Source of the DNA: an uncultured Gammaproteobacteria bacterium
Lineage (GTDB): Bacteria > Pseudomonadota > Gammaproteobacteria > Pseudomonadales > JAHEGP01
Direction of reading: 5' to 3'
DNA: 64,000 nucleotides
Assembly (NCBI GenBank): GCA_963722805.1
Contig: CAVROQ010000010.1
Location: 38,915-102,914, forward strand
The notes under the pieces are model-generated. The model worked only from the letters and a program-made list of their open reading frames with translations. It had not been told where the DNA came from and searched no databases. This document shows positions 18,380 through 34,566 of this stretch, piece after piece (position 1 is the stretch's first letter; the number at the start of each line of letters is the position of its first letter). A program made the position numbers and the translations under genes.

Positions 18380-19353
18380 GCATTCTAGAGGTTAAGCAAC
18401 TGCAAACAAGTTTCGCCACCGAACAGGGCAGAGTCCAGGTGCTGGACCGCGTCAACTTGCAGGTCAATAGTGGTGAGACTCTGGGTATTGTGGGCGAATC
18501 CGGCTGTGGAAAAAGTATTACCGCATTGTCGATAATGCGTTTGCTGCCCCAACCTTCCGGGCGCATCGACGGCGGCCAGATTCTGTTTCAGGGGCAGGAT
18601 CTTGTGCGAGCGACACCGGAATCGATGCACTCGATTCGCGGTAGGCAAATAGCGATGATCTTCCAGGAGCCCATGACGGCGCTCAATCCAGTGCAAAAGA
18701 TTGGCAAACAGCTGCAGGAGCCCTTCTTGTTGCACTGTCCCGAGATGTCGAGCTATGACCGCATCAAACGAGCCACCGGGTTGCTCGCTGAAGTGGGAAT
18801 CCCCTCGCCGGAAAAACGTCTCAATGAATATCCCCACCAGATGTCTGGCGGCATGCGCCAGCGTGTGATGATAGCCATAGCACTGGCGTTAAAGCCGGCG
18901 TTACTGATTGCAGACGAACCAACCACTGCGCTTGACGTGACGATACAGGCTCAGATCCTGGCATTGATCAAGACACTGCGGGAGCGCCATGGTACTGCCG
19001 TTATGCTGATTACCCATGACCTCGGAGTCATCGCTGAAACCTGTGACCGTATCGTGGTCATGTATGCGGGACGAGTAGCTGAATCTGCTAGTGTGGTGCA
19101 GTTGTTTCGCCAGCCCTCCCACCCTTACAGTGTCGGTTTGCTGGGCTCAATTCCGCGCCTGGATAGCGAATCTCGCACAGTACTGAATACCATTCCCGGT
19201 GTCGTTCCATCTATTGATCAGTTGGGTCATGGTTGCCGCTTCGCTGGTCGCTGTAGTTATGCGCGGGAGCAGTGCCGCGCCGAGCAGCCAGCAATGCAGC
19301 CAGTTGGCGACGATCACCAGGCCGCCTGCTACTTCTGGCAGGAGGTGGTCTAG
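18376..19353 (+). CDS. ABC transporter ATP-binding protein (DppD/YejF N-half-like)
   Basis: 325 aa with Walker A GESGCGKS, signature MSGGMRQRV, Walker [13 protein letters not shown] and the oligopeptide C-terminal Cys cluster. Confidence 0.92.
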
Positions 19354-20331
19354 ATGAGTGAGCCATTGCTGCAAGTCCTGCAGTTGAGCAAACACTTCCC
19401 TATTCGTGGCGGTGTATTTCGCCGGACGGTGGCTGAGGTTCACGCTGTCGATAACGTGTCATTCGATATTTATCCCGGTGAGACTCTCGGTCTGGTGGGC
19501 GAATCCGGCTGTGGTAAGAGCACCATCGGAAAAACCCTGCTGAAGCTACTTGGGCGCTTCGACGGCGAGATCTGGTTTCAGGGGCAACCACTTCACAGCT
19601 TGTCTTCCAGCGCAATCAAAGATCTGCGCAAAGACATCCAGATTGTTTTCCAGGACCCGATGGAGTCCCTCAACCCTCGGCACACGGTAGGCGAGATCAT
19701 CGAGGAACCGCTTATTATCCACCGCCAGGGAGACAGTGCCAGCCGCAGACAAAAGGTTATCCAACTGGCAGAACGTGTAGGCTTGTCGGCCAGTGCCCTC
19801 GACCGGTATCCTCATGAATTTTCTGGTGGCCAACGCCAGCGTATCGGTATTGCCCGAGCCATTGCTCTGGATCCTCGGCTTATTGTCTGCGATGAGCCGG
19901 TTTCTGCTTTGGACGTTTCAATCCAATCACAGATCCTGAACCTGCTGCTAGAATTGCAGAGAGATCTCAACATTGCGCTATTGTTTATTTCCCATGACCT
20001 GGCCGTTGTAAAACACATCTCTCACCGCATTGCGGTGATGTACCTGGGAAATATCGTTGAAATTGCGGATGCCGGAACCTTATATCTGCAACCCCGGCAC
20101 CCTTACACTCGCTCCCTCATTGACGCCATACCCAAGCCCTACCCTGGCTTTGACAAAGAGCGTGAACTTCTGCCGGGTGAGCCGCCCTCTCCCATCCACC
20201 CGCCTGCCGCTTGTCGCTTTCACCCGCGCTGCCCGATGGCACAAGAAAAATGTCGCGAAGTCGCACCGGAAATTGAAAAGGTGGGTGAAAACCATCAAGT
20301 GGCTTGTCACTTTTGGCGAGAAACTCTGTAA
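19354..20331 (+). CDS. ABC transporter ATP-binding protein (DppF/YejF C-half-like)
   Basis: 325 aa with Walker [10 protein letters not shown], signature FSGGQRQRI and Walker B LIVCDEPVSALD. It starts immediately after the previous stop. Confidence 0.92.
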   Translation: MSEPLLQVLQLSKHFPIRGGVFRRTVAEVHAVDNVSFDIYPGETLGLVGESGCGKSTIGKTLLKLLGRFDGEIWFQGQPLHSLSSSAIKDLRKDIQIVFQDPMESLNPRHTVGEIIEEPLIIHRQGDSASRRQKVIQLAERVGLSASALDRYPHEFSGGQRQRIGIARAIALDPRLIVCDEPVSALDVSIQSQILNLLLELQRDLNIALLFISHDLAVVKHISHRIAVMYLGNIVEIADAGTLYLQPRHPYTRSLIDAIPKPYPGFDKERELLPGEPPSPIHPPAACRFHPRCPMAQEKCREVAPEIEKVGENHQVACHFWRETL

Positions 20332-20466
20332 CGGCTATTGGCAAGTGAAACTTACGTGAGGAAACCTGCTCAGGCCACCTCGCGAGACGGCACCGCAATC
20401 CCGAAAAAAAGCTGCGCCCAAATAAAAAAACGTTAGCCGATCGCTGCGGCCCGGGAATCGAATAGT

Positions 20467-23400
20467 CTAGTTGCGCGAAAGGTGCTCGAGTTGATCAGCA
20501 CTGCTTAAGTATAACTCCTCGATCTTTTCAACCGGGATAGGCCTGCTTAGATAGTAGCCCTGAGCAATATCGCAGCCCTGCTTCTTCAAGAAGGCTCGCT
20601 GCAATTCTGTCTCGACTCCCTCGGCGACGACGCTCACATTAAGCACATGCGCAAGATCAATAATGGTTTTAACGATATCGGCATCAACCTGGTTGGTGAC
20701 AATATCAACGACAAAAGAACGATCGATCTTGATGACATCAACAGGGAAGCGCTTGAGATAATTTAGTGAAGAGTAACCTGTGCCGAAGTCGTCTATTGCA
20801 AGACTGAGCCCCATCGCCCTGAGCTTGGCCAGCGTGGCAATAACCTGATCGGGCTCCTCCATAATAGTGCTTTCGGTGATTTCCAACTCAAGGTACTGGG
20901 CCGGCAGGCCGGTTTCCCTGAGTATCAAGGCTATGGTATCGACCAATCCGGGATTGATAATCTGCTTGCCGGACAAATTTACCGAAGCGCACATCATCTT
21001 GAAACCGCGCTTGCGCCAACTCTGCAATTGCTCACAGACTTCCCGCAATACCCATTCACCCAGAGGCAAAATATGTCCTGTCTCTTCAGCAAGGTAGATA
21101 AACTCGTCTGGACCTACCAGACCTCGCTCCGGATGCTCCCATCGTATCAGGGCTTCCATCGCCGTCACCTTGCCCGTCTTGAGGTCTTCCTGAGGCTGGT
21201 AAAAGATCACAAATTCGCCGCGATCGAGGGCACCGCGCAAATCGTTCTCTAGCTGCAGGCGGCGACTCACATCCGCCTCCATTTGACTTTCATAGAACTG
21301 GTAGCGATCGCCCAGCTTCTTGGCTCGGTACATCGCCATGTCGGCACTTTTCAGCAAGGTGCCGATATCCTCCCCATGATCGGGAAACATTGCGATACCG
21401 ATACTGGTGCTGACGTACATTTCCTTGCCCATAAAAACAAACGGACGCGACAGCTGCTGATGGATTTTCTCTGCCACGTTGGCAACTGCTTCGGGCGATT
21501 TAACCCGGTCCAGCAATATCGTAAATTCATCGCCACCGAAGCGGGCGACCATATCTTCCTTACGCAGGCAGCCCTGGACCCGTTCAGAGAAATACTTGAG
21601 TAGCAGGTCTCCGGTTTCGTGGCCGAGGGTATCATTGACCAACTTAAAGCGATCCAGGTCAAGAAACATCAGGGCCAGCATACTGCTTTCGGGCCTCGGT
21701 CGTGCCAGAGCCTCGCCAAAATGCTCGTTGAACATTACCCGGTTCGGCAGCCCGGTAAGGGTATCTTTATAAGCCAACTGATGGACGTGGCGCTCTGCAT
21801 GATGGGCTTGCACCAGGTGTGTAATTCGTTTGCTCAATACCCAGAAATTTACAGGTTTGGCGATATAGTCAGTTGCTCCCGACGCAAATGCCTTGTTGAT
21901 CGAAGCCTCGTCATTGAGCGCGGTAATAATCAGCACGGGTACCTTGCGGGTCTGTGACAAATTTTGCAGCAGCGCACAGGCTGTGAAACCGTCCATTTTC
22001 GGCATGACGGCATCCATCAGCACCAGGTCCGGGGCCTGCTCTTCGCACTGGCTAAGGGCCTGCTCTCCATCTGCCGCCTCTTCAATCCAGTAACCTTCGT
22101 TACGCAATACTTCTGCCATAGCCATGCGGGAGCCGCGATCATCGTCGACGATCAGGATTCTGGGTTGCCCCGAATAACCAGGGTCAAGCTCGGTATTGGC
22201 GACATCCTCGGGGGTGGCTGCTGCTAACCTGGCCGCATCCTCTGAAAAATCTCCCTGCTTCAACCACGCCACCAGCGCATGACTCGCGGCACATACTTCA
22301 CCAACTTTCTTCTCGGCTCCCTCCAATTCGTCCTTGCGGGCCTGCGATTCCAATTGCTGGCTGATTTCAACCAGCCGCACTGCCCCGACGTTGCTTGCAC
22401 TACCCTTTATCGTATGGGCGATAACCGCCAACTTTATAGAGTCGCGCTGCTCCAGAGCCTGCTCCAGCGCTTCGAGATAAAGCGGCAGATCTTCCACGAT
22501 TGCCGCAATGACTTTTTCAACCGCCGGCCCAAGCTGGGCCTCAAGGTTTCGTAGCACCTGAATGTCTATGATCTCGGAAGTGTTCTCGATATCCTGGCCG
22601 CCGACAACAATCTCTTCCGGTTCAAAACCCTCGATATGCTCCCAGTTTTCGTCATCCGTTGGCCCCGATGCATCCAACCAACGTAACAGCTTTTCTTTCA
22701 GGGCATCCCGGCTAAGCGGCTTGGCCAGATAGTCATCCATTCCCACCGAGAGGCAGCGTTCGCTTTCACCCTCAGTGACGTTGGCAGTCATGGCGATGAT
22801 CGGCACATGGCTGTCTTCTGCCTCATACTCCCGGATAATTGCAGTTGCCTTATATCCGTCCAACTCGGGCATATGACAATCCATCAGCACCAGGTCGTAA
22901 CTAGCCCGGGCGATCTGGGCGAGGCATTCCTTGCCATTATTGACCACATCAGCCTGACATCCCATACGCTCGAGCATTGCCAACGCCACCTGCTGATTGG
23001 CACGATCATCCTCTACCACCAATAGCCGGCTGCCGCGAAACATAATGGCCGAGGGTTCGAGGAGTTTGCGTTGGGTAGATGCGGCATCGCCGGTTTTTTG
23101 AATTTCATTGATACAGCTCACAAGGTGATTACGCAACACCGGCTTGGTTAACACCGCGCTGGCATAATTTGCGCAAGTTGAGTCAGCAACAGACCCATAC
23201 CGCTGGATAAATATGACGCCCGCCTGCCGTAGCACCGGAACACCGCGCATATAACGCAACAGTTCAAAGCCGCGGCCACCATCGAGCATTTCGTCAAGGA
23301 GTACAAGCGTAAACGGCTGCTGTGAAGAGGCCTCGACCAGCTTTTCCTGTGCCTCATCAAAACTTGAGGCAACATCCCACTGGACACTGTTGCCATCGAG

Positions 23401-24966
23401 CATACAGCCAAGACTGCGCTGCATCAGAGGGTTGTTATCGATAATAAGCATGCGACCATGAGTGGACTTGATGCGGAGCAGCTTTGACGGGGTAGCCTCG
23501 CCACCTTGTTGCAACAGCGGCAGGGTAAACCAAAACCGGCTGCCCTCACCAGAGTCGCTGTCAACACCCATATCACCGCCCATCAACTGCACCAGTTGGC
23601 GAGAGATAGTCAACCCAAGTCCAGTGCCGCCAAACTTGCGTGTGGTAGATTCATCGCCCTGGGAGAATACTTCAAAGATCCGCTCTTGCTGCTCTTCGCT
23701 GATACCTATTCCAGTATCCCAGACTTCAAAGCGCAAATCGATGCTGTCAGTATTCATATTGATCACAGAGGCTTCAATGCCCACCGAGCCATGCTCGGTA
23801 AACTTGATAGCATTACCCGCGAGGTTTACCAACACCTGACGTATTCTATCGCTGTCTCCAATCAGGTATTCAGGAATTTCGGCTGCCGCAACATAAGCGA
23901 AATCAATATTCTTACGCTGGGCCTGTGGCCCCAGTAACACAACAATTTGCTCGAGGCATTCGTTCAGGTCGAACTCACGCAGCGATAACTGCGCTTTGCC
24001 TGCTTCATTTTTGGAGAAGTCCAGCAGATCATCAATCAGGCAGAGGAGAGACTCCGCCGAGCTTCGGGCTACTCCCACAAATTCCTTCTGCTTTTCACCA
24101 AGGCGCATGTCACTGAGCAGATCAAGCATGCCGAGCACGCCGTTCATAGGGGTTCGCAGCTCATGGCTCACATTGGCAGCGAACTCTCCCTTGGCTTTAG
24201 CAGATTCCAGAGCCTGGTCCCGTGCTAACCGCAGCGCCTCTTCCCTGCCGTCCAGCACGTCCATCATGGTATTGAAAGCGCTCTCCATATCGCGAATATC
24301 GCTGGTACCTCGCAGCTCTGCCCTGACCGCGTTCTCACCTTGCTCCGCCTTGCGCATGGTGCGGGCCAGATTCTGCAGGGGCCGGGTTAACCTTCCGGTA
24401 ATGGTGAGCAATGCGAGTAACAAAAAGGAGGCCAGAGCTATTGAGACCAGCAAGTTGTAACGAAAAATACTGCTCTCCATATTGTTGAGTGTTGCCTTGC
24501 TCATCATCACCCTGACATGACCAATCAGTTCCGGGCCATCGGCAACATTGGCAAATGGCGAATCTGCCCCACTGCCGCTATAAACCGGGGAATCGAAGTG
24601 CCAGGCTTCGGGAGTTTCCTGAAACAAAGCCAGTTCCGTGGAATGGGCACCACGAGAATAACCATCGGGGAGATCGCTAAACAATATGCGCTCTCTGACA
24701 TCAGTTATTTCAACAGCCTCGATATCGGGGAAGGCTTTGATAACAACAGCGGCCTCCGTCGCGCTATCTTCACTGCTATAAAGGAGGGCCAGGGTGCTTT
24801 GCTCGGCAAAGCTTTCTGTCAACTTGAGTCCTTCACCGATTAGCCGCTCGCGCAGCTTTTGGCTGGTCAGCTCAGAGATGACTATGCTCGAAATCAAGGC
24901 CAGCAAAAGCATACCAAGACTGAAGATAATGCCTAGCTGGTTTCTGAAGCTGATATTCTTAAGCAT
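20467..24966 (-). CDS. Multidomain hybrid sensor: TM-periplasmic domain-TM-HAMP-HisKA-HATPase-(atypical REC)-REC-Hpt-REC-GGDEF-EAL
   Basis: Domains read from N- to C-terminus:
- H-box FAANVSHELRTPMNGV;
- ATPase GNAIKFT...DTGIGIS...GGTGLGLTISRQLV;
- atypical REC RMLIIDNNP...LVLLDEML;
- REC LLVVEDDRANQ...LVLMDCHMPELDG...LAKPL;
- Hpt AHTIKGSASNVGA;
- REC ILIVDDDRGS...LVLMDAVMPKMDG...IAKPV;
- GGDEF with I-site RKEDMVARFGGDEF;
- EAL with EALIRW, ELEITES, DDFGTGYSSL, KIDRSF and EGVET. Confidence 0.95.
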   Translation of the reverse strand: MLKNISFRNQLGIIFSLGMLLLALISSIVISELTSQKLRERLIGEGLKLTESFAEQSTLALLYSSEDSATEAAVVIKAFPDIEAVEITDVRERILFSDLPDGYSRGAHSTELALFQETPEAWHFDSPVYSGSGADSPFANVADGPELIGHVRVMMSKATLNNMESSIFRYNLLVSIALASFLLLALLTITGRLTRPLQNLARTMRKAEQGENAVRAELRGTSDIRDMESAFNTMMDVLDGREEALRLARDQALESAKAKGEFAANVSHELRTPMNGVLGMLDLLSDMRLGEKQKEFVGVARSSAESLLCLIDDLLDFSKNEAGKAQLSLREFDLNECLEQIVVLLGPQAQRKNIDFAYVAAAEIPEYLIGDSDRIRQVLVNLAGNAIKFTEHGSVGIEASVINMNTDSIDLRFEVWDTGIGISEEQQERIFEVFSQGDESTTRKFGGTGLGLTISRQLVQLMGGDMGVDSDSGEGSRFWFTLPLLQQGGEATPSKLLRIKSTHGRMLIIDNNPLMQRSLGCMLDGNSVQWDVASSFDEAQEKLVEASSQQPFTLVLLDEMLDGGRGFELLRYMRGVPVLRQAGVIFIQRYGSVADSTCANYASAVLTKPVLRNHLVSCINEIQKTGDAASTQRKLLEPSAIMFRGSRLLVVEDDRANQQVALAMLERMGCQADVVNNGKECLAQIARASYDLVLMDCHMPELDGYKATAIIREYEAEDSHVPIIAMTANVTEGESERCLSVGMDDYLAKPLSRDALKEKLLRWLDASGPTDDENWEHIEGFEPEEIVVGGQDIENTSEIIDIQVLRNLEAQLGPAVEKVIAAIVEDLPLYLEALEQALEQRDSIKLAVIAHTIKGSASNVGAVRLVEISQQLESQARKDELEGAEKKVGEVCAASHALVAWLKQGDFSEDAARLAAATPEDVANTELDPGYSGQPRILIVDDDRGSRMAMAEVLRNEGYWIEEAADGEQALSQCEEQAPDLVLMDAVMPKMDGFTACALLQNLSQTRKVPVLIITALNDEASINKAFASGATDYIAKPVNFWVLSKRITHLVQAHHAERHVHQLAYKDTLTGLPNRVMFNEHFGEALARPRPESSMLALMFLDLDRFKLVNDTLGHETGDLLLKYFSERVQGCLRKEDMVARFGGDEFTILLDRVKSPEAVANVAEKIHQQLSRPFVFMGKEMYVSTSIGIAMFPDHGEDIGTLLKSADMAMYRAKKLGDRYQFYESQMEADVSRRLQLENDLRGALDRGEFVIFYQPQEDLKTGKVTAMEALIRWEHPERGLVGPDEFIYLAEETGHILPLGEWVLREVCEQLQSWRKRGFKMMCASVNLSGKQIINPGLVDTIALILRETGLPAQYLELEITESTIMEEPDQVIATLAKLRAMGLSLAIDDFGTGYSSLNYLKRFPVDVIKIDRSFVVDIVTNQVDADIVKTIIDLAHVLNVSVVAEGVETELQRAFLKKQGCDIAQGYYLSRPIPVEKIEELYLSSADQLEHLSRN

Positions 24967-24993
24967 CAATTAATCTAACCTTTGGCCTCTGGC

Positions 24994-25965
24994 CTATTGT
25001 CTCGGAAAAACAACGTCTATTTCTCGAATTCTGGCGCGCGAAATATTCAAGCCCAAGTGCTCCGCAGTCCGAATATTCACCGCTCTCAGCAAGTCCCGTG
25101 CGTGTTCAATTCCGATATTATTGCCGTCTCGCTTGGCCACAAGCGCCTTGGCTATCGAATTGCCAAGGCCCTGATTGTCTGGATAGAGTGAGAATAGAAC
25201 ACCCTTTGAAACATAGGAAGGGTTACTGGAAAATACCAATAACTTGCGGTTCCATGCCCCCTTTAAGACATGGTACAAAACTGACCGTTCGCGCAGTGCA
25301 ATATCTCCCTGCAATAGCCAGACACTATCTTGTCCCGGGGCCAGGGTTTTAAACAAAGCCCGGTACCGGCTTGCGGATTCGGACAGTGATTCAATCAAAT
25401 AGGCTTCCAGTTGAAGACCATGCGCTGCGGCAACGGCTTTGGCTCGCTGCATCAAGCGCCCATGAAGCTTTTGCTGGTAAATGACGTGAACGGTTTTGAT
25501 TTCTGGCGCCAGAGCAACAAGCTCACGAAACATTTCGTCGGGGTCAGGTGCCAGGGTTATGGCGGTAAAGTCCGGCTCAACTGTCACCGGAGCCGCTAAT
25601 ATCGCGCTGCTGATGGTCAAGTAACTGGGCGGCAGTTGTTGCACAAAGTCCATAGCCTGGTTGCCCAACGCGACCACGGTTTTCAATTGGGTGCTGTCCA
25701 TGATAGCGACGACATCATCCAGGCTGGCATTACGCGCAAGCACCCGATCTTTCACCTCCCCCGGGTAACCCGCTCGAATGCCCTCGATAATATCAGTAAA
25801 TACGCGGACATAGGGGTCTGGCACATCGGGATATAGCACTACGATATCATCGGCAACATCGCCCTGTGCGAACACCGGAATTGCAAGCAAAAGCAGCTGA
25901 ATACCGCAAACCAGCACCGTGGCGGTTTTGAAGCGCAACCATTGGCCCCAGAGCACAGACTTCAA
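24994..25965 (-). CDS. Periplasmic type-I binding protein, ABC_sub_bind (PF04392)-like, with no cognate permease or ATPase nearby
   Basis: 323 aa with signal peptide TATVLVCGIQLLLLAIPVFAQG. An alternating beta-alpha PBP pattern is visible. The C-terminus RAVNIRTAEHLGLNISRARIREIDVVF resembles the typical end of the PF04392 family. The gene ends 24 nt upstream of the hybrid kinase gene. Confidence 0.55.
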   Translation of the reverse strand: MKSVLWGQWLRFKTATVLVCGIQLLLLAIPVFAQGDVADDIVVLYPDVPDPYVRVFTDIIEGIRAGYPGEVKDRVLARNASLDDVVAIMDSTQLKTVVALGNQAMDFVQQLPPSYLTISSAILAAPVTVEPDFTAITLAPDPDEMFRELVALAPEIKTVHVIYQQKLHGRLMQRAKAVAAAHGLQLEAYLIESLSESASRYRALFKTLAPGQDSVWLLQGDIALRERSVLYHVLKGAWNRKLLVFSSNPSYVSKGVLFSLYPDNQGLGNSIAKALVAKRDGNNIGIEHARDLLRAVNIRTAEHLGLNISRARIREIDVVFPRQ

Positions 25966-26019
25966 CGTAGCGCCTTACCAAGGTTACAGCCGCACAACGG
26001 CTTGCTTGACATCGTCCGA

Positions 26020-26841
26020 TCAGTCATGGGTCACCGGGCGCTCCTTGACACCGGTATATTTAATATCGTCACAGCTCAAAGGCAAAAACGATCCTGGCGG
26101 ATTTTTATGATTCTCCTCATAGCAGGCGTGGATTCCACCATTTACACAAAGACTGAATACAATGTAGCCTTGATACTGATCAAGGCCTTGATCAAGCCAA
26201 AAAGCACTCAGGTAACCCGCCAGGTTTAACGATTCACCGTATTTTTTACCGAGATACTCCTGAATACGGTAAGCGGCAGTCAGGTGGGCCCCGTCTGCAA
26301 ACCCCAGATTTCCGGCGACTCTTTGCATTGCGGCGACTCTTTCATCGCCGGCCGCTATCGGGCGCAAATACCCAGGAACCATAATCTTGCCTTTGCGTTT
26401 CGCATGACCTTCAATAAAATCTGCGGCCGATTGCCCGGCGAGCAACGACTTCCTGGCTTGGGCAATAAAACTAAGGGTATCCATTACAGTGCCTGGCCCA
26501 TACACCCTGGAATCGCTGGCCATGATACCGGCGCATATTGCAGCTGAGGGTAATACCCGCGCATCACCTCCTAACGCCCCGATCTGGTTACACCAGATTC
26601 TGGGGTCAGGCCAGCTCAAACATATAAATGCGCTCTCCATCCAATCAGATAGCCGTTTTTCCGGCATTTTACCGGTTACATTCAATAGCAACACCTGGAA
26701 GAAGCTCGCCTTCCCAACCAGGTCATCCATCATTGAGTAGCCCTGATTGGAAACGCCTTGCCCAAGCACCCAACCGCCTTTCCGGGAATAAATCTGGCCG
26801 CGGCGTTTATGCCAATAATCCTGGGGAGCGACGTCAGTCAT
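26020..26841 (-). CDS. Citrate synthase-fold protein B (citryl-CoA lyase-like, canonical catalytic His positions substituted)
   Basis: Likely start is the ATG at 26841 (MTDVAPQDYW; the track ORF extends to 26910). Family-like segments are SMMDDLVGKASFFQVLLLNVTGKMPEKRL, WPDPRIW, MVPGYLRPIAAGDERV and NLAGYLSAFWLDQG. GYLR replaces GFGHR, and GPGTVM replaces GPLHGGA. No signal peptide is present. Confidence 0.55.
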   Translation of the reverse strand: MTDVAPQDYWHKRRGQIYSRKGGWVLGQGVSNQGYSMMDDLVGKASFFQVLLLNVTGKMPEKRLSDWMESAFICLSWPDPRIWCNQIGALGGDARVLPSAAICAGIMASDSRVYGPGTVMDTLSFIAQARKSLLAGQSAADFIEGHAKRKGKIMVPGYLRPIAAGDERVAAMQRVAGNLGFADGAHLTAAYRIQEYLGKKYGESLNLAGYLSAFWLDQGLDQYQGYIVFSLCVNGGIHACYEENHKNPPGSFLPLSCDDIKYTGVKERPVTHD

Positions 26842-27685
26842 CCGATCCACTCCACTGATAGTGATAATGGCTATCGCTAACAAAGGGCATGTCCGTGATC
26901 GGTTTACCACTCATTTCAATACCATGCGCCAGCAAGCCGGGGCTGGATGCCAGTTGAAACAGGCCTGCACCAACATTTGGCGAAAACCCCAGCTCGGTAA
27001 AGATGGCGGCAGCAATGCCAGGCATTTGCCACCCAAGATTCGAACTGCGCATACCACTCACAAACGCCACACCCCAGGCCAACGCTTCGTTGTCTGGAAA
27101 GGATTGATGTAATCGCACTGCCGCGGCATCTGCGAAGGTATCGACACCTGCAAAGCAGCTGCCGAAGCCAGGTGCCACGCAAATGGGTTCTCCCTCAGCA
27201 CGCGGCTTATCCTGCAGCTCCTGGCTCAGCTCTACAGCCAGGACCAGGGGATCTTTACGGATGTTTTTACGCAGAAACTTAATCGCATTGCGTACTTGTG
27301 CAGCGCCAAGATGCTCACCGCCAAGCAACGCAAGCCCGATCGGCAAAAGATGCAGCGGATCGGCCCTGGACACGCTGGCATTCATCACGGCACGAGTACC
27401 CGCGTGGCGCGGGCCGGGATTTGCTAGCAAGATCAGTATTTGTTGCAATTGAGACGCTTGCCCGGCACTGGGAAGTTCACCTTTCAATAAGCAAAAAATA
27501 ACCTCAACCAGGCTTCTGCGCTCCATTAGGTCGAGCACATCGTAGCCATGCCATAACACCCGCTGCGCCACAAAGGGGTTTTCCGGGTCAGGAATTTCCT
27601 GGCAGACCTTGGTACTCACCTTGTCGGAAAACACATCGCCACGAGCTTTTACAAGCGCTTCTTCAGGCGAGTTCAGTTTTGTCAT
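26834..27685 (-). CDS. Citrate synthase-fold protein A (citryl-CoA lyase-like, GFGH His replaced)
   Basis: 283 aa. Family-like segments are RVLWHGYDVLDLMERRSLVEVIFCLLKGELPSAGQ, LANPGPRHAGTRAVMNASVSRADPLHLLPIGLALLGGEHLGAA and APGFGSCFAG. Canonical enzymes read PGFGHRVY at that last position. The start overlaps the receptor stop (TAATG), and the stop overlaps the start of protein B (ATGACTGA). Confidence 0.55.
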   Translation of the reverse strand: MTKLNSPEEALVKARGDVFSDKVSTKVCQEIPDPENPFVAQRVLWHGYDVLDLMERRSLVEVIFCLLKGELPSAGQASQLQQILILLANPGPRHAGTRAVMNASVSRADPLHLLPIGLALLGGEHLGAAQVRNAIKFLRKNIRKDPLVLAVELSQELQDKPRAEGEPICVAPGFGSCFAGVDTFADAAAVRLHQSFPDNEALAWGVAFVSGMRSSNLGWQMPGIAAAIFTELGFSPNVGAGLFQLASSPGLLAHGIEMSGKPITDMPFVSDSHYHYQWSGSDD

Positions 27686-29901
27686 TAGAATTGATACCTG
27701 ATTTTGCCGTAAATAGCCCTGCCGGCCAGCGGGAAGTCACCGGGTACCAGAGATCCTCCGGGGATAGCCGCCTCACCCGGGCTCGGCTCGTAAGCCTCGA
27801 CATCGAATACGTTGTTCACTATCAGCGAAATATCCATATGATTGATGATATTGGTACGGCGCAGCACCAGCGACGTGAGCGTGTAATCACCTATCGGATC
27901 GCGCGGGTCTCCAGCTTCACGCTTGCGATCGGCGACCCATTTTGCCTGGCCATTCAGCTCCCAGTCATATGCGAAATTCCACCGCAGATCGGCGAACAGC
28001 TGGTGTTGTGGCGCGTTAGGAACATCTTTATCAGAATCATCGAAATAGGATTTCTGCCAGGCGTAATGTGTCTTCAGGGAAAGGCTTGATGTCATACGCC
28101 ATTCAGCTTCGATTTCGAAGCCGTAACCCGTCTGTCCGCCCGTATTTTTTGCCCGCCGGGCACCCGATTCCACAAGGTCCCCATTGCCATCTAGTTCTTC
28201 CGCTTCAACCGGTACAAACTGAATCAGGTCATCAATCTCGTAATAATAAACATTGAGTCCGGTGCTCAAGTCGAAGGTAGGACGGTAGTCGAAAGCCACC
28301 TCCAGGGTATTGATCGTTTCCGGATCAAGGTCGGGATTCCCAAGGCCTACGGGATTGTTTTCAACAAACAGCTCGGCAAACGATGGCGCCCTGAAGGCCC
28401 GCCCATAGAGAAATTTGGTGGTGAGATCCTGGCGGGTATTCCAAACCAGCGCGACCCGGGGGTTAACCGTTGAGCCAAAATCCGAGTAGTGATCATAACG
28501 AACGCCGAGGGTAAGGTTCCAATCTGAGGCCAGGGCCCATTCGTCCTGCAGCGAAGCGTAATAAACCGTGCGACTCTCGTCGGGGATAAAGTTGTATTCC
28601 GTCCCGGTCACAGAGGTCAATGCCCCATCAATAACCTGATAAACCTCCACCGGATTTAATGCCAGACCACCATAATTCTTGGTCTCTTCGCCATGCAGCC
28701 TGGCGTAGATCAGGCCGCCAGCGAGACGAATAGTGTGACGATCAAAACCCGTGTAAAAGGCTGAGGTATCCAGGCGCTGGTGCTCTTCATACACTTCAGG
28801 ATTACCCAGCATACCGTCAGTAAAAAGCCCAAAGCCGGCGATAGAGTCCGGAATAAAAGCGCCATCCTCGTCAAATTGAATCGCTGCGATGTTACCGTCT
28901 GCACCCAATGGCAGTAGCGCACCCGCCGGGAATAAATCCTGCTCGGACTTGGTGTTGATATCCATATAACTCAGCTTGGCTTCATACTCCCAATACTTGA
29001 CGCTATCCCGGTTGACGTAAGCCAGGTCGACAAGATAATTATTCGCCTCAGATGTACCCCCCGGGTCTAATGCCAACGCCAGGCCGGGTCCCACACCCGC
29101 CTGCTGTCGCCAATTCCAGGCTGAGAATTTCCAGTGCTGCCAGCTGATCGCAGCCCGAATATCCGCTCGTTTTTCATCCGTCGCCGCTTGAGACGGCGCC
29201 AGAGAGGCTGTCGTCTGCAGAAAATTGTCAATCGTGGTCTGTGCATCTGCATCGATTATGCGGCCACTATCCCCATCGGTTTTGAGAAAATTCGCTGAAA
29301 ACATCAGCTCGACCTCTCCCAGCTGGCTGCCGTTGAGCAGCCACAGCTCCTGGGTATTAAATGAGCCGGCCCGCACACCGAGTTGAGTACCATCAATCTG
29401 CTTGCTGGTTTTAGTAATGACATTGATGACACCGGCAAAAGCGTCGGCACCGTATATGGCTGAACCCGGGCCCCGAATCACCTCAACCCTTGCAATATTA
29501 CTGACAGGAAGTGTGTTTTTCGCGCCACGATCGCCAAAATAGAGTTGGGTAATAGGCGTTCCATCCACCAGCATCAGCACCTGGGGATTTTTGTCCGTAT
29601 GAATACCTCGCATCGAATAAATCGGCGAGAAGCGGTAGGAGGAAAGCGCGACATGCAATCCCGGCACGGTTTCCAACACCTGGTCCAGGTTTGCTGCACC
29701 CATTGCCTCGATTTCACTGGCAGTAATCACCGTAGCAACGGCCGGCGCCTCGGATATGGCCAATTGCTGGCCGGTGGCGATACTGACGAAATCCTCATCA
29801 CCGAAGGACAGCAACAGGTCTTCGTCAGCGGCGTGGCTGGCGGCGGCAAGCGGCACCAGCAATGCTAACCAATGGCGATGATAACGAACTAAATTAGTCA
29901 T
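27685..29901 (-). CDS. TonB-dependent outer-membrane receptor
   Basis: The ATG at 29901 gives signal peptide MTNLVRYHRHWLALLVPLAAASHA (the track ORF extends to 29943). The plug domain is present (ISEAPAVATVITASEIEAMGAANLDQVLETVPGLHV...VEVIRGPGSAIYGADAFAGVINVITK). A long beta-barrel follows and ends in the terminal aromatic motif GKIRYQF. Confidence 0.92.
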   Translation of the reverse strand: MTNLVRYHRHWLALLVPLAAASHAADEDLLLSFGDEDFVSIATGQQLAISEAPAVATVITASEIEAMGAANLDQVLETVPGLHVALSSYRFSPIYSMRGIHTDKNPQVLMLVDGTPITQLYFGDRGAKNTLPVSNIARVEVIRGPGSAIYGADAFAGVINVITKTSKQIDGTQLGVRAGSFNTQELWLLNGSQLGEVELMFSANFLKTDGDSGRIIDADAQTTIDNFLQTTASLAPSQAATDEKRADIRAAISWQHWKFSAWNWRQQAGVGPGLALALDPGGTSEANNYLVDLAYVNRDSVKYWEYEAKLSYMDINTKSEQDLFPAGALLPLGADGNIAAIQFDEDGAFIPDSIAGFGLFTDGMLGNPEVYEEHQRLDTSAFYTGFDRHTIRLAGGLIYARLHGEETKNYGGLALNPVEVYQVIDGALTSVTGTEYNFIPDESRTVYYASLQDEWALASDWNLTLGVRYDHYSDFGSTVNPRVALVWNTRQDLTTKFLYGRAFRAPSFAELFVENNPVGLGNPDLDPETINTLEVAFDYRPTFDLSTGLNVYYYEIDDLIQFVPVEAEELDGNGDLVESGARRAKNTGGQTGYGFEIEAEWRMTSSLSLKTHYAWQKSYFDDSDKDVPNAPQHQLFADLRWNFAYDWELNGQAKWVADRKREAGDPRDPIGDYTLTSLVLRRTNIINHMDISLIVNNVFDVEAYEPSPGEAAIPGGSLVPGDFPLAGRAIYGKIRYQF

Positions 29902-30212
29902 AAAACGCGGCCTGAAGACAGATGAACTTTTGAAATGCGGCACGCTCCCGGTGCTCTGCTTCTGCCCGGTGTTGGTTTATTAATTATTGGCAGCAACTGC
30001 TTTGAACGACTAGCTGGCATCTCTCTCAACGCTTATGCAAGGCTTTATTTGACGATAACTCCAGACTTTACTAAAGACTTGAAAGCTTAAGAGAAAGCCT
30101 AGGTTAGGCCAGGGAATCATGCCACCATATATCGCTTTAATTCTAATTGTCAGGTCGGTAACAATTGGGGGCGTTTCAGCCGCTGGAAGACGCACCCTGA
30201 CTGATATTCAAA

Positions 30213-32195
30213 TCATGCCCCAAGTACCTGGGCCCTGAGGTCCATGGGCGGCACCTCATCTGGATCGACGCAGATATCGAGCAGGGTCGGGCCATGTTCG
30301 TGATAAATATCTTCAATGCTTAAATCCAGTAAATCCTGGGGACAGCGAATCCTGAAACTGCGTATGCCCATAGCCTTTGCGATCGCGCTAAAATCAACAT
30401 CCGGCAAGTCATAGCCAATCGGTTCTGCGCCCGTGAGTTTTTGGCCGTGCTTTACCATGCCCAAGGCTCCGTCATTCAAAACGATAAACACAACCGGCAC
30501 CCTATGCTGCTGAGCCACAGACATCTCCTGACCACTCATCAGCATGCTGCCGTCACCGGTAATGCATACCGTAATCTGCCTGGGAGCAGCCAATGCAGCG
30601 CCTACCGAAGCGCCTATAGCCCATCCCATCGAAGAAAACTCGAGGGCCGCCTGGAATAGCCCGCCTACACTGCTACGCCGGCCTGACTCTGCGTCCTTGC
30701 GCGCTATACCCCGGGCCTCATGACGACGCTCCAGAATACGCCTGTCAAAAGGGTTAAGATAATGGATGGCCCAAACTACGCTATTGCCCGCATCCGCGAG
30801 ATAGCGAGTGCTGGGCGGAAACAAACGTGTCAGGTATGCCATCAACCACTGCGGTTTTACCAGTGCCTGCTCCCAGCCGGGAGTGCCGTCCATATCGAGG
30901 GGCTCGTTAGCACCCCTACTTTTACTTTCACCCAGTTGCGAGCGCAAATGCTTGACCTTAGCGTCTTCAGAAAACTCAGAGCCGCACGCATCTTTTTCAT
31001 CAAAGGACGCCAAAATACTCTCAAAAATTGAGACCAGCCTGCCGCGTACATGGAGTCTCGCCATGGGTGAGCGGGTAAAATTGCTGGCAAGCGGTTCGAC
31101 ATGGATCAGGCGACGATTGAGCAAGGCATGGAGATCCCAACCATTACTGGAAAACTCGCCGAGACAAGTTCCTACCGCGACCACCGTGTCGACATCCACA
31201 TCCAGCAGCGCCTTACGGGCGCTTTCATGACCACCAAAGCCGATCACCCCGCAGTAAAGGGGATGATATGAACTGATCAGCCCCTTGCCGTCCGGGGTTG
31301 TTACAATCCTTGCATTCAGCTTGAACGCCACTCGAAGTATCAGCGCGATGGCCTCGTGGCAGCCCTCACCGAGCACGAACACCGTTCCGGAAGAATCCTC
31401 CAATTGGGCGCAAAACTCCTGCACCGCAGTCTCATCTTGCATGTGCGGGGCACGCAGCAGGGCCCGGGCATCGTACCTGGGTTTGTCAATCGACAAGGGG
31501 CTACGAAGAATATCCAGGGGAACACTGAGGTGAACCGGGCAGCTGCTACTAATAGCCGTCATAATCGCAGTAATCAGTTTTTGCTCGAATTGCTCTACAT
31601 GGCTCACCATGGTGTTGTAACCCGTGCAGAACTGGAACATACCAACGGTATTAACGCCAGTGTCCGATGACTCTTGCAGAGCTTTACGACCAAAATTATT
31701 AAGCGCAGTCTGCGCCGTAATTACCAGCAACGGGACGTTATTTTCGTAGGCAGACGCGACACCGGTAATAAGGTTAGTTGTGCCCGGGCCAGTGGTGGCG
31801 CAGCAGACACCCAGTTTGCCGCTATTGCGGTTATAACCGTGGGCCATAAAAGCAGCACCGGTCTCATGCCTGGCAACAATAGCCCGGGGGCCGCCACAAC
31901 GCTCGCTTCTTGCCAGGGCATTATAAAGCGGCTCTATGGCACCGCCCGGCACACCAAAAATATAATCCACATCGATCGAAGACAAATAAGCCACTAGCAG
32001 GTCACTGGTATTAAAGGGCCTTGGTTCACGCGCCACTTCAGCGCCATGAAAAACCTTTTCGGCGGGCAATTGCGACACCCGAGCTTGCTGCAGTGACAAT
32101 TGCGCCTGGTCTTTAACAAATTGCCCCATAAACCCTGACTCCTCGAAAGCTCTGTCGGACCACTGAGTGAATCTATCAGTATTCTTTTTCTTCAA
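30213..32195 (-). CDS. Thiamine-diphosphate-dependent enzyme (acetolactate synthase large subunit-like) with N-terminal extension and internal insertions
   Basis: The Pyr domain reads YIFGVPGGAIEPLYNAL...ARHETGAAFMAHGY...CCATTGPGTTNLITGVASAYENNVPLLVITAQ. The ThDP-binding motif is GDGSMLMSGQEMSVAQQHRVPVVFIVLNDGALGMV. The canonical fold begins at about residue 62 of the 660-aa ORF, so the start codon is uncertain. Confidence 0.85.
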   Translation of the reverse strand: MKKKNTDRFTQWSDRAFEESGFMGQFVKDQAQLSLQQARVSQLPAEKVFHGAEVAREPRPFNTSDLLVAYLSSIDVDYIFGVPGGAIEPLYNALARSERCGGPRAIVARHETGAAFMAHGYNRNSGKLGVCCATTGPGTTNLITGVASAYENNVPLLVITAQTALNNFGRKALQESSDTGVNTVGMFQFCTGYNTMVSHVEQFEQKLITAIMTAISSSCPVHLSVPLDILRSPLSIDKPRYDARALLRAPHMQDETAVQEFCAQLEDSSGTVFVLGEGCHEAIALILRVAFKLNARIVTTPDGKGLISSYHPLYCGVIGFGGHESARKALLDVDVDTVVAVGTCLGEFSSNGWDLHALLNRRLIHVEPLASNFTRSPMARLHVRGRLVSIFESILASFDEKDACGSEFSEDAKVKHLRSQLGESKSRGANEPLDMDGTPGWEQALVKPQWLMAYLTRLFPPSTRYLADAGNSVVWAIHYLNPFDRRILERRHEARGIARKDAESGRRSSVGGLFQAALEFSSMGWAIGASVGAALAAPRQITVCITGDGSMLMSGQEMSVAQQHRVPVVFIVLNDGALGMVKHGQKLTGAEPIGYDLPDVDFSAIAKAMGIRSFRIRCPQDLLDLSIEDIYHEHGPTLLDICVDPDEVPPMDLRAQVLGA

Positions 32196-33044
32196 ACGGG
32201 CACTTGCTATCCAGCCTGCCCGCTTGCGATATTGCCCCTACAGAAACGCCAAAATCTTTATTAGTTATGCCTAATGCAAAAACAAACACTCACCCCTCTC
32301 TGCCGAGTGGGCGAACCTTGATCATCCATGACTGAGTTACCTTACAATTCCTGCGAGCCTTCCCGACCCCTGAGTCCAATCTTATTATTTTGGCTTATTC
32401 AGACCCTGTCTTCCCAATTCTCAAGCTCGCAATAGTTACCAACTTCAGTACCCACGCTAGGCCAGCGCGCCCGTTTTCAAATAAGGAGATCACTGCCACA
32501 AGCACCGCCCTGCCTTGCCCACAGAACTCGCTGCATTCGCTTGTTTACTATAGCTACCAACGCGCAACCCGGATAGCTAGAGACGTCCGTACTAAAACGC
32601 TTCTCCTTTCTTTATAACTCATTGGCCCGTACACAAACAACCACCAAACAAGCGTTTTCTGCGAAGTAGACCAAATTTTTTTTTATGCAAGCTAATGCTA
32701 AAACTATTTGCAGCGCCTACCCATTATTCAGTGCGGCGATGCCCGAAGCCAGCGGTCGTTGCTCGATGCTTAAAACCACAACGGCCGACCAACCGGGATA
32801 TGCGCAACCGTTCAAGCAGCTATGTATCAAGGGTATTAGAATTTAGCAGCCCTGAAATCGGGGATGACTACCAGCTCTTGCAGAGCAGACAAGCCAAACC
32901 GCCATAACACACAACGGCACACAGCTTATCAGCACGGTTTGATTCTGGTAGCAGCGGTAAAAAACATCGCCACCAGACATTTTTTGTTGCAGATCCGACG
33001 GGCGATGCACCAAAACTCAAGTCGTCATCAACCGCCGATGACCC

Positions 33045-33773
33045 TCAAGACTTTGTTGCCTGGCCGACTAGTTCATCAACCAACAGCGGCAACAATGCGC
33101 CCGCCGCACCACAACGGTGCTCAACAAAATCGTTTGGCTGCGGCGAAGGCTCAGGATTAAGTTCAATGGTGTGGGCCCCGGCGCGTCTGGCGATCTCGAC
33201 AAACCCGGCAGCAGGATACACATTGCCAGATGTACCGACCGCAATAAATACGTCGCTCTGTTGAAGCGCCGCCATTATGCGCTGCATAAAATGCGGCATT
33301 TCCCCAAACCAAACAACGTCCGGCCGCAATCGCCCCACCGTGTCGCATTGGCCGCAGGTATCTGAGACAAAAAAGTCATCGTGCTGCTTCACTACATCCC
33401 CGCAGTGATCGCAACGCATGCGCAGCAGCTCACCATGCATATGCAGGACCCGCCGGCTTCCCGCCTTTTCATGCAGGTTGTCGACATTCTGGGTTACCAG
33501 CGTCAACGCATCTCCCACTTCTGACTCGAGTCTTGCCAGCGCCAAATGAGCTGGATTAGGCTGAATTTCCGCCGCCAATAGCTGCCGCCGACGCTCATTA
33601 TAAAACTCCAACACTAACTCCGGATTAGTGTTGAAGGCTTCGGGCGTGGCGAGCTGCTCGGCTCGAAAATTACGCCATAAGCCACCCTCTCCACGAAAAG
33701 TCTGCAAGCCGGATTCCGCCGAAATCCCGGCTCCAGTTAGCACCACAATAGATTTGAACATACCAGGGAACAC
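33045..33773 (-). CDS. cobB: NAD-dependent protein deacylase (Sir2 family, CobB)
   Basis: The sequence shows VVLTGAGISAESGLQTFRG, QNVDNLHEKAG, HGEL, Zn-ribbon cysteines CDHCG...CGQC, and VGTSGNVYPAAGF. The start may be the second ATG at 33761. Confidence 0.92.
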   Translation of the reverse strand: MFPGMFKSIVVLTGAGISAESGLQTFRGEGGLWRNFRAEQLATPEAFNTNPELVLEFYNERRRQLLAAEIQPNPAHLALARLESEVGDALTLVTQNVDNLHEKAGSRRVLHMHGELLRMRCDHCGDVVKQHDDFFVSDTCGQCDTVGRLRPDVVWFGEMPHFMQRIMAALQQSDVFIAVGTSGNVYPAAGFVEIARRAGAHTIELNPEPSPQPNDFVEHRCGAAGALLPLLVDELVGQATKS

Positions 33774-33887
33774 CTATTCGAATCAGTATGACTTCCAGCA
33801 ATTTCCGATGCCAGCTTGGCCTTATTGCCCTTGCACCGGTGCCAGCTTACTATAGAGGCCGGTGCCAAACTATCGAGGAATCAGAGC

Positions 33888-34367
33888 ATGGCAGTTGGCG
33901 TACTTTTTGTCTGTCTTGGCAATATTTGTCGCTCACCAGTCGCCCAGGGAATGCTCGAAAAAAAGGCGCTGGGGCAAGGACTGGAAAATGCGCTGACGAT
34001 AGACTCATGTGGCACCGCAGACTTCAATATTGGCAAACCCCCCGACCCCAGGGCAGTAGCTGCTGCAAGCCGAGCCGGCTATAACATTGGAAACCAATTT
34101 GCACGTCAGCTAAAGCCCGCAGATTATCAAGTGTTTCGCTATATTGTCGCCATGGACCGGGTCATCCTGGTTAATTTGCAAAGCTGGGCACCTCCGGAAT
34201 TTGCCGGTGAATTGGCGCTACTCATGTCGTATTACCCCAACGCCATGTCGCAGCTGGTCGCAGACCCCTATTACGAGACCGAAGAAAAATTTGATAGTAT
34301 GATTGAGACTATGGAGCCCGCACTGGATGCCTTACTTGCCCACATCAAACACAATCACAGTATCTGA
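33888..34367 (+). CDS. Low-molecular-weight protein-tyrosine phosphatase
   Basis: The ATG at 33888 gives MAVGVLFVCLGNICRSPVAQGM with the CX5R(S) P-loop. The DPYY motif lies near the C-terminus. The track ORF starts earlier, at 33816. Confidence 0.9.
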   Translation: MAVGVLFVCLGNICRSPVAQGMLEKKALGQGLENALTIDSCGTADFNIGKPPDPRAVAAASRAGYNIGNQFARQLKPADYQVFRYIVAMDRVILVNLQSWAPPEFAGELALLMSYYPNAMSQLVADPYYETEEKFDSMIETMEPALDALLAHIKHNHSI

Positions 34368-34566
34368 GCTACGATGAAGCCTCCTAACGAGCATTGGTTT
34401 ATCCAAGCTCGAATACCTGGCTGCATGTCGTTGGGGCGCAATAGCGTCAGCTTGTGGCAAGACCATGCTCCGCAACATCGGCCATGGTGCCCAGGCCGGC
34501 CAGAAAAAAGCACCCGCTGTCTCGCCTGAACAGGGACGATGCCAGTCGAGCAAAATGCAGTAAATT

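Follow-up and report, generated by a model that had tools for sequence, protein, structure and literature searches.

Here, we describe a gene cluster in a 64,000-nucleotide stretch of DNA (the window) from contig CAVROQ010000010.1 of an uncultured Gammaproteobacteria bacterium. The cluster includes six consecutive open reading frames (ORFs) on the minus strand at positions 20467-32195. They encode a thiamine diphosphate (ThDP)-dependent enzyme, a TonB-dependent outer-membrane receptor, two citrate-synthase-like (CS-like) proteins named A and B, a PF04392-type solute-binding protein (SBP), and a 1500-aa kinase that ends in GGDEF and EAL domains. We found that this block is a real, functionally linked module, far beyond chance, because the content was constant while the gene order was shuffled across 81 loci. 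The cluster is conserved in several bacterial phyla and is apparently undescribed; literature searches found no published description of this gene combination. With moderate confidence, we propose that it forms a "make, re-import and sense" module that spans the cell envelope and whose output is cyclic di-GMP (c-di-GMP).

Conservation of the cluster across genomes

The original prediction, made from the letters of the window, had placed six genes at these positions. All six ORFs were found there, and in the profile-HMM annotation each of them had at least a weak match to the family that had been suggested. The window differed very little from an ENA metagenome contig, and the closest genomes were metagenome-assembled genomes (MAGs) of uncultured Gammaproteobacteria. 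To survey other genomes, an alignment of A homologues was scanned against one genome per species, which gave 80 loci, and the window proteins were searched against the six-frame ORFs of these loci. The carriers were Cellvibrio, Teredinibacter, Neptuniibacter, Chromatiales, and Thiotrichaceae, and also Gallionellaceae/Sideroxydans, Desulfobulbaceae (including Electrothrix), Desulfuromonadaceae (including Malonomonas rubra), Magnetococcales, and Nitrospirota. The association thus recurs in Gamma- and Betaproteobacteria, Desulfobacterota, Magnetococcales, and Nitrospirota, which are at least five phylum- or class-level groups.

Forty-nine of the A-side loci had at least 8 kb on both sides. Among them, B was the most frequent companion (47 loci), followed by an orthologous receptor (46; >400 bits), the ThDP enzyme (42), and a GGDEF-EAL protein (34). 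The PF04392 protein and a homologous sensor module each occurred in 21. A and B were adjacent in 76 of 81 loci, and there were 44 distinct gene orders or orientations among the 81. For instance, in several lineages the SBP, sensor kinase, receptor, A, and B genes run one way, and the ThDP and REC-GGDEF-EAL genes run the other way. In addition, a reciprocal survey scanned metagenome contigs from the binding protein. The sensor gene adjoined the binding-protein gene in all of the 53 loci, in support of the pairing of the two proteins that had been predicted. The receptor was present in 36 of the 37 loci with enough upstream sequence, and ThDP, A, and B were present in 8-9 of the 17 loci in which the upstream sequence reached 7 kb or more. 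Hence the enzymes were missing from about half of the receptor-binding protein-sensor triads in this survey. The original prediction had named a lack of co-conservation as an outcome that would count against it; the genes were co-conserved from both search sides. From the counts of the two surveys, the receptor is the hub of two overlapping units. One unit is a sensing triad (receptor, binding protein, and sensor), and the other is an enzyme trio (ThDP, A, and B).

One may suppose that the block is an ordinary neighbourhood of unrelated genes, namely a housekeeping citrate synthase or citryl-CoA lyase, an acetolactate synthase, a siderophore receptor, an orphan ABC-type SBP, and an unrelated c-di-GMP kinase. 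It is true that each gene alone is generically annotated in public sources ("citrate synthase", "TonB-dependent receptor"). However, the co-conservation crosses phyla with a shuffled order, and natural fusions link the genes. Furthermore, equivalog cutoffs are widely missed, the catalytic triad of the CS-like proteins is absent, there is no Fur box, and the SBP has no ABC partner. This explanation is refuted by the co-conservation, the reciprocal survey, and the fusions, and we give it a negligible probability.

In a betaproteobacterial MAG (L007:8850-11722), the B and receptor genes were spread over several reading frames, owing either to pseudogenisation of the cluster or to long-read frameshift errors.

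Natural fusions

A profile search of 1.84 billion representative proteins gave three natural fusions. P0367 is an 885-aa protein in which a ThDP enzyme is fused to an A-type domain, and P0259 and P0343 are single-chain A-B fusions. In a divergent clade, ThDP, A, and B are translationally coupled. Furthermore, the sensor module (kinase residues 3-245) was homologous from end to end in three kinds of protein. In the first kind, it is followed by the kinase core only, with a separate REC-GGDEF-EAL protein nearby. In the second kind, found in Gallionellaceae, it is directly joined to PAS-GGDEF-EAL. In the third kind, to which the window protein belongs, the full relay and GGDEF-EAL come after it. 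Through these fusions, ThDP is linked with A, A with B, and the sensor with c-di-GMP enzymes.

The citrate-synthase-like proteins A and B

The genes of A (26834-27685) and B (26020-26841) lie on the minus strand, and each product is about 275 aa. A contains neither a signal peptide nor a transmembrane segment. Both proteins resemble the citryl-CoA lyase 6hxp. The profile of the A family matched it with E 3e-24, and B matched it with E 1e-10 (phmmer). In addition, the AF2 models of A (pLDDT 82.5) and B (pLDDT 81) both had 6hxp as the top Foldseek match (TM 0.67-0.73). A and B matched each other with an HHalign probability of 97.7% at 18% identity, so by profile comparison they are distant paralogues, and we presume that they form an A/B heterodimer.

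However, the curated scores are low. The match to the PRK06224 citryl-CoA lyase models of NCBIfam was 60 bits for A (cutoff 261) and 47.8 bits for B (cutoff 193). The match of A to PF00285 (Citrate_synt) in Pfam was 34.7 bits and covered residues 41-126 only, and B had no Pfam match. In the HMMER alignment to 6hxp, the catalytic His (DH), His (GxGH), and Asp (NVD) correspond in A to Pro (N-P), Ser (G-S), and a non-conserved residue. In B, both His positions are deleted and the Asp is replaced by Ala. These replacements are family-wide in A and B. Most citrate ligands are also replaced or deleted in the alignments to 6hxp, and B retains only the DPR-type Arg, as DER (R168). Because the scores are far under the curated cutoffs and the catalytic triad is gone, A and B, judged from their sequences, are not functional members of the citryl-CoA lyase family. 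The predicted pair is thus unlike a characterised enzyme, as had been expected. By the profile matches and the models, both have the all-alpha fold of the citryl-CoA-lyase module, with a remodelled active site.

Both families have invariant residues of their own. A contains the motifs NPGPR, PGFG, and PGLLAHG.E and further invariant R/H/E/W/Y positions. B contains S-W/Y-P-D-P-R, G-D-E-R, N206, Y114, C240, and C257. Because many polar residues are invariant in both families, a working site in A/B is suggested. An Fe-S or metal site in B, considered from four conserved Cys, was rejected, since only C240 and C257 remain in the divergent clade. The families are large: A has 155 representative clusters at E<=1e-30, and B has more than 1000 homologues, all unnamed. 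In public sources, A and B are labelled only "citrate synthase" or "hypothetical".

A different role for these proteins should be considered here. A and B could be non-catalytic regulatory or scaffold subunits of the ThDP enzyme that bind a citrate- or CoA-like effector, a role compatible with either a biosynthetic or a catabolic direction. ACT-domain small subunits regulate acetolactate synthase, and acetohydroxyacid synthase (AHAS) needs its regulatory subunit. The loss of all canonical catalytic residues in A and B, the natural ThDP-A fusion, the ThDP-A-B translational coupling in the divergent clade, and the AHAS-like nature of the ThDP enzyme are all consistent with it. However, A and B stay with the receptor where ThDP is absent or decayed, and many polar residues are invariant (NPGPR in A; DER, N206, Y114, C240, and C257 in B). 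We consider such a role unlikely.

In three related gammaproteobacterial MAGs, an orphan A-type protein was found without B, receptor, or ThDP (L033:9977-10813, L037:9884-10720, and L038:10001-10837). It lies directly downstream of a 4HBT thioesterase gene and a fadE-fadA-fadB-fadD set. This neighbourhood hints at an acyl-CoA connection of the A family.

The ThDP-dependent enzyme

The ThDP gene (30213-32195, minus strand) matched Pfam TPP_enzyme_N/M/C. Its product has the three-domain Pyr/middle/PP architecture. In the translation, we read the cofactor motif GDGS...NDG and the catalytic Glu in HE, as GDGSMLMSGQEM...NDGALG and HETGAAF. The true start is more likely the ATG at 32129, which gives a product of 638 aa, the length called in the near-identical ENA contig.

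All NCBIfam equivalog cutoffs were missed by this enzyme. For example, it scored 252 against a cutoff of 538 for TIGR00118 (AHAS large subunit), 246 against 1000 for the ScyA-related family, and 219 against 1020 for ScyA. Its sequence points to an acetolactate-synthase/ScyA-like clade. The nearest solved relative was BbmA (8x3x, E 2e-81); CsmA (8x3z) was also close, and acetolactate synthases came next. When the printed alignment, which covers the Pyr and middle domains, was read by eye, BbmA and the window enzyme were roughly 45% identical. Unlike BbmA and CsmA, the window enzyme has about 60 residues inserted ahead of the PP domain. The acyloin-forming ScyA-related enzymes are near relatives as well, but the window enzyme is far under their cutoff. 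Moreover, 2-hydroxyacyl-CoA lyase and oxalyl-CoA decarboxylase were also among the matches.

At four loci (L009:4403-5404, L034:4424-5428, L070:16438-17550, and L082:16370-17338), the ThDP gene has a class I fructose-1,6-bisphosphatase gene beside it. These loci belong to Chromatiales and Cellvibrio, which are unrelated lineages.

The receptor and the binding protein

The receptor gene (27685-29943, minus strand) encodes a Plug domain (84.8 bits) and a TonB_dep_Rec_b-barrel domain (143.6 bits), and these place the product among TonB-dependent receptors; no NCBIfam subfamily cutoff was reached. It likely starts at the ATG at 29901, which is followed by a predicted signal peptide MTNLVRYHRHWLALLVPLAAASHA. 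The plug begins at ORF residue 64, and there is no match to the N-terminal signalling (STN) extension. In addition, no FecR or ECF sigma genes were seen in the cluster. The receptor thus differs from FecA/FpvA-type transducers in lacking both the STN extension and the sigma/anti-sigma pair.

The binding-protein gene (24994-25965, minus strand) had a marginal match to PF04392 (ABC_sub_bind, 26.8 bits; cutoff 25.9). However marginal the single match, the profile of 15 binding-protein orthologues matched the PF04392 structures 3lkv (E 1.5e-11) and 3lft. The product has an N-terminal hydrophobic signal segment. No ABC permease or ATPase that could partner it was found in the cluster; the Opp-type ABC system nearby is encoded on the opposite strand to the PF04392 gene and includes an SBP_bac_5 protein of its own. 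We propose that the binding protein is a periplasmic co-sensor of the kinase.

Furthermore, of the polytopic membrane families encoded up to 3 kb from the core genes, none occurred in over 3 of 161 loci. Because no inner-membrane transporter family recurs, the imported molecule is most simply read in the periplasm.

The sensor kinase and the c-di-GMP output

The kinase gene (20467-24969, minus strand) encodes HAMP-HisKA-HATPase-REC-REC-Hpt-REC-GGDEF-EAL. The sensor module (24253-24936) was delimited by two hydrophobic segments (residues 12-34 and 166-189) and the HAMP match, and it consists of the first transmembrane segment, a periplasmic domain of about 130 aa, the second transmembrane segment, and HAMP. 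Eleven of 14 orthologous sensor modules matched Pfam sCache_4 (best E 2e-9). The family profile matched 5O7J (E 6e-6), the structure of the GacS detector domain (PMC5595915). These matches suggest that the periplasmic domain is of the GacS/BarA type, that is, sCache_4. The periplasmic domain of BarA detects protonated short-chain carboxylic acids (PMC8639471). The organic acid that the original prediction had named as the ligand remains only a hint at the family level, by analogy with this BarA/GacS-type detector.

The phosphorelay part (21823-24195) includes HisKA, HATPase_c, REC1, REC2, Hpt, and REC3, as seen from Pfam domains and motifs. The phosphorelay residues are intact, including H269 (HELRTP), the aspartates of REC2 and REC3, and the Hpt H852 (HTIKGS). 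In REC1 (23095-23445, residues 509-625), IIDNN stands in place of the DD acidic pair at the N-terminus, and REC1 may be a pseudo-receiver. The best NCBIfam kinase matches were BarA (498 bits; cutoff 890), TorS, and LuxQ, and none of them reached the cutoff.

The output part (20467-21774, up to the stop codon) matched Pfam GGDEF (166 bits) and EAL (260 bits). GGDEF is at residues 1145-1149, the RxxD I-site RKED at 1136-1139, and the EAL domain contains EALIRW, ELEITE, DDFGTG, and EGVET. Elsewhere, the GGDEF, I-site, and EAL motifs were intact in 71 of 73 cluster-linked GGDEF-EAL proteins. The intact motifs, together with a sensor that is either fused to GGDEF-EAL or split from it, support the earlier proposal of c-di-GMP turnover as the predicted output of the system.

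Variant clusters exist. In other lineages, such as Thiotrichaceae, a separate YfiR-like DUF4154 protein and a CHASE8-HAMP-PAS-GGDEF-EAL protein replace the PF04392/sCache_4 pair. In a Cellvibrio variant, the replacement is a DUF4154 domain fused to a hybrid kinase. Both variants keep the receptor-A-B-ThDP core. These variants raise the possibility of a partner switch of the YfiBNR kind, in which the periplasmic protein would repress or partner the sensor, and the TonB receptor would be more than a ligand gate, as an outer-membrane signal transducer that sequesters or releases it when loaded. DUF4154 comprises the YfiR/HmsC proteins, the receptor kept its place as hub in the surveys from A and from the binding protein alike, and the window sensor itself has a weak CHASE8 match. 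On the other hand, the receptor has no N-terminal signalling extension, no OmpA/Pal-like YfiB was found in the cluster, and no homology could be detected between the profiles of PF04392 and DUF4154; a common origin of the two was rejected at an HHalign probability of 0.2%. In addition, PF04392 proteins are bona fide ligand binders, as the matches to 3lft and 3lkv indicate, and such a switch leaves the enzymes unexplained. We therefore regard it as quite improbable.

Two further observations concern the sensing genes. First, the cable-bacteria-type clusters of Desulfobulbaceae contain two binding proteins, one of the PF04392 type and one of the PF12974 phosphonate-binding type (L045:5007-6194 and L051:5724-6548), together with sCache_3 and PAS kinases. 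The output may differ in these two clusters, because no GGDEF-EAL protein was found within 10 kb. Second, a full-length BdpA (BAR domain-like protein A; 786 bits, cutoff 750) is encoded ahead of the Cellvibrio clusters, at L071:3505-5046 and also in L020, L036, L044, and L081. A REC-EAL protein, a protein with the glyoxalase fold, and an unknown protein of 310 aa accompany it. The group may reflect lineage synteny or an extended regulon.

Proposed mechanism and the direction of the chemistry

In the "make, re-import and sense" module that we propose, the cytoplasmic ThDP enzyme, of the carboligase type, would be complexed with the A/B heterodimer and make a small metabolite. A and B would bring a new conserved site in place of the citrate-synthase catalytic residues. 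Other lineages would add tailoring by a short-chain dehydrogenase/reductase (SDR) or by O-methyl-, acyl-, or sulfo-transferases, and the product would probably carry carboxylate groups. The released molecule, possibly as a complex, would then enter through the dedicated TonB-dependent receptor. It would remain periplasmic, because no inner-membrane importer belongs to the cluster. Gene association and analogy suggest that the PF04392-type protein would bind the molecule there and dock on the sCache_4 domain of the kinase. The relay domains are seen intact, and through them the phosphoryl flow would run from autophosphorylation at H269 to REC2, Hpt H852, and REC3. REC3 would finally switch the attached GGDEF/EAL pair and alter c-di-GMP.

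The genes inserted in the clusters bear on the first step. An SDR gene stands right after B in at least 12 loci. Other insertions encode a Condensation/PapA-like acyltransferase, an APS (adenosine 5'-phosphosulfate) kinase with a NoeE-like sulfotransferase, a Methyltransf_2 O-methyltransferase, and a hexapeptide transferase. Biosynthesis is favoured because the nearest ThDP relatives (BbmA/CsmA, AHAS, and ScyA-related) are of the carboligase type and not lyases, the accessory genes are of the tailoring type, and sensing triads occur without enzymes. That the enzymes make a variable small molecule, which is then read by the receptor and the sensor, is in our opinion about evenly balanced between true and false.

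The opposite direction, that of the original prediction, is nutrient sensing with catabolism. An exogenous organic acid or metabolite would be imported by the receptor and sensed in the periplasm. It would then cross the inner membrane by an unlinked transporter and be degraded by ThDP-A-B, and c-di-GMP would tune attachment or motility toward the source. The co-conservation data fit this direction too. The ThDP superfamily includes lyases and decarboxylases, with 2-hydroxyacyl-CoA lyase and oxalyl-CoA decarboxylase among the matches of the window enzyme, and the ancestry of A/B (citryl-CoA lyase) is that of a cleavage enzyme. In addition, the neighbours of the orphan A in the three MAGs are a thioesterase gene and fadE/fadA/fadB/fadD, and BarA-type detectors answer to short-chain carboxylic acids (PMC8639471). 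However, no inner-membrane importer recurs in the 161 loci. The accessory genes are for methyl-, acyl-, and sulfo-transfer and SDR, not of catabolic types, and the closest ThDP relatives are carboligase-type. Furthermore, about half of the sensing triads have no enzymes, and A/B do not have the lyase catalytic residues. Triads without enzymes are easier to understand if some carriers make a shared molecule and others do not than if the route is catabolic. We thus hold catabolism to be doubtful. For the same reasons (no inner-membrane transporter in the 161 loci, tailoring accessories, and enzyme-less triads), the part of the original prediction in which the molecule is processed in the cytoplasm is not favoured.

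Several observations weigh against the "make, re-import and sense" module. The first group concerns the enzymes. The ThDP gene lies about 300 nt apart from the rest of the block in the window, and it is absent within 10 kb in 7 of the 49 full-flank loci though A, B, and receptor persist. L002, L003, and L069 come from a Thiotrichaceae genome and from metagenome contigs that match it. At about 9030-9830, upstream of A, they have the ThDP gene in short fragments only (84 and 78 bits), owing to decay or assembly error, beside intact A, B, and receptor genes. A and B have lost every canonical catalytic residue and could be non-catalytic. The tailoring genes occur only in a minority of loci, and literature searches found no function for BbmA or CsmA. 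The second group concerns transport and sensing. No conserved exporter was found in the cluster loci, and the release of the product is therefore unexplained. The window copy of the sensor has only a weak CHASE8 match, below the Pfam level for sCache_4, so its sCache_4 assignment rests on the orthologues and the family profile.

Comparison with known systems

The defining features of no known family are present in full. The system resembles several known kinds and includes two unnamed CS-fold families. In LuxP-LuxQ (autoinducer-2, AI-2) and TorT-TorS (trimethylamine N-oxide, TMAO), a binding protein, as the presumed ligand-binding partner, is likewise encoded beside a membrane hybrid kinase. 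The docking of the SBP on the kinase periplasmic domain that we suggest by analogy with these pairs rests on the gene adjacency in 53 of 53 loci. However, the SBP here is of the PF04392 type, the detector is sCache_4, and there is a dedicated TonB receptor. The output in the window is a fused REC-GGDEF-EAL, not a DNA-binding regulator, and no curated cutoff was reached.

BarA/GacS shares with the window kinase the detector family and the order HAMP-HisKA-HATPase-REC-Hpt. The window kinase adds an extra REC and has a C-terminal REC-GGDEF-EAL instead of a separate UvrY/GacA, and it scored 498 against the BarA cutoff of 890. Unlike the kinase in the window, neither BarA nor GacS is known to us to have a binding protein and a TonB receptor as partners. 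REC-GGDEF-EAL proteins also occur in two-component systems such as RavS/RavR and PdeK/PdeR of Xanthomonas and Lpl0330/Lpl0329 of Legionella. The split versions found here are also a sensor kinase and a REC-GGDEF-EAL protein, as in the RavS/RavR- and PdeK/PdeR-type pairs, and the window protein is the fused equivalent. Systems of the RavS/RavR type have PAS or other sensors, and we know of none with a TonB receptor, a binding protein, or linked enzymes.

In YfiBNR (TpbB), a periplasmic partner likewise controls a membrane c-di-GMP enzyme in response to an outer-membrane component. However, none of YfiR (DUF4154), the YfiN CHASE8 cyclase, and YfiB was found in the window at threshold, and at the outer membrane a TonB receptor takes the place of the OmpA-like lipoprotein. 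Polysaccharide utilisation loci of Bacteroidetes combine SusC-type receptors with hybrid two-component sensors, and the shared logic is TonB-dependent entry followed by periplasmic kinase sensing. Siderophore clusters share another logic, in which biosynthetic genes are clustered with the receptor of their own product. The cluster differs from both in having no SusD, glycoside hydrolases, nonribosomal peptide (NRPS) or NRPS-independent siderophore (NIS) synthetases, sigma/anti-sigma pair, or Fur box, and its output is c-di-GMP.

Citryl-CoA lyase and citrate synthase (6hxp, the CCL module of ATP-citrate lyase) have the same fold and size as A and B, and a dimer is presumed. A and B differ in being a hetero-pair of distant paralogues that are fused or coupled to a ThDP enzyme. 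The cluster would be unexpected to specialists in c-di-GMP signalling, TonB transport, or ThDP and citrate-synthase enzymes.

Organization of the locus and its flanks

A tight six-gene block had been predicted, and four of its five junctions were exactly as described. The receptor stop and the A start overlap as TAATG. A and B overlap by 8 nt, ATGACTGA, in which the ATG is the start of B. The spacing from B to the binding-protein gene is 54 nt, and that from the binding-protein gene to the kinase gene is 24 nt (TTG start) or 27 nt (ATG start). The tightness did not hold at the fifth junction, since the gap between ThDP and the receptor is 269 nt (to the GTG at 29943) or 311 nt (to the ATG at 29901). 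Because this junction is not short, the ThDP gene may be a separate transcription unit.

The intergenic region 5' of the receptor gene (29902-30212, minus strand), delimited by reading the sequence, shares 80% identity with its counterpart in the relative L004 over 303 nt. It probably holds the promoter of the receptor-A-B-SBP-kinase unit. In promoter and terminator scans of the block, the counts did not exceed those of shuffled sequences, and they therefore say nothing on the operon structure. A search with Rfam (by E-value, 19000-35000) gave no relevant RNA match, and a riboswitch or other RNA 5' of the receptor or ThDP gene was rejected on this search. Iron regulation was also rejected, because Fur-box matches in the regions 5' of the receptor, ThDP, and A genes were, even at their best, at background in the window and about 80 loci.

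The flanks were also as predicted. On one side is an Opp/Dpp-type ABC system (14491-20331, plus strand), and on the other side is Sir2/cobB (33045-33773). The order in the ABC system is permease, permease, SBP_bac_5 binding protein (619 aa), ATPase, and ATPase, so the SBP_bac_5 gene is in the middle and not first. Its synteny was seen only among close relatives, and it was rejected as part of the module. The region from the ThDP gene to cobB (32130-33044, about 915 nt) contains no notable ORF and no Rfam match. It was rejected as a conserved element, since no similarity was found in L004 or L005.

Implications

Both A and B belong to large unnamed protein families defined on the citrate-synthase fold without its active site. 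New enzymology is suggested, because both families are fused or coupled to a ThDP enzyme. It is possible, and we say so tentatively, that the cluster represents an unrecognised class of extracellular signal or metallophore system, in which the molecule is made by a ThDP-carboligase/pseudo-citrate-synthase complex, re-imported through the dedicated TonB receptor, and sensed in the periplasm by the binding protein and a GacS-type detector domain, which would set c-di-GMP. If this is true, the species with the triad only would be non-producing "eavesdroppers", there would be new chemistry on the citrate-synthase fold, and the first ligand route would be defined for a GacS-like sCache_4 detector. 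The Gac signal of Pseudomonas has long been sought and has been linked to thiamine and Krebs-cycle function.

The inputs of c-di-GMP signalling are mostly unknown. The present cluster nominates a full path, from an outer-membrane gate to a cyclase/phosphodiesterase, and a probable source of the ligand. The carriers include iron oxidisers (Gallionellaceae), cable bacteria, metal reducers, the polysaccharide degraders Cellvibrio and Teredinibacter, and sulfur oxidisers. Among the cultured ones are Malonomonas rubra DSM 5091 (L083), Cellvibrio fibrivorans BE190 (L044), Motiliproteus sp. MSK22-1 (L001), and Teredinibacter sp. ISS155 (L023). Because the system recurs in such varied carriers, it may be a widespread, unstudied behavioural switch, and because several carriers are cultured, the model is directly testable.

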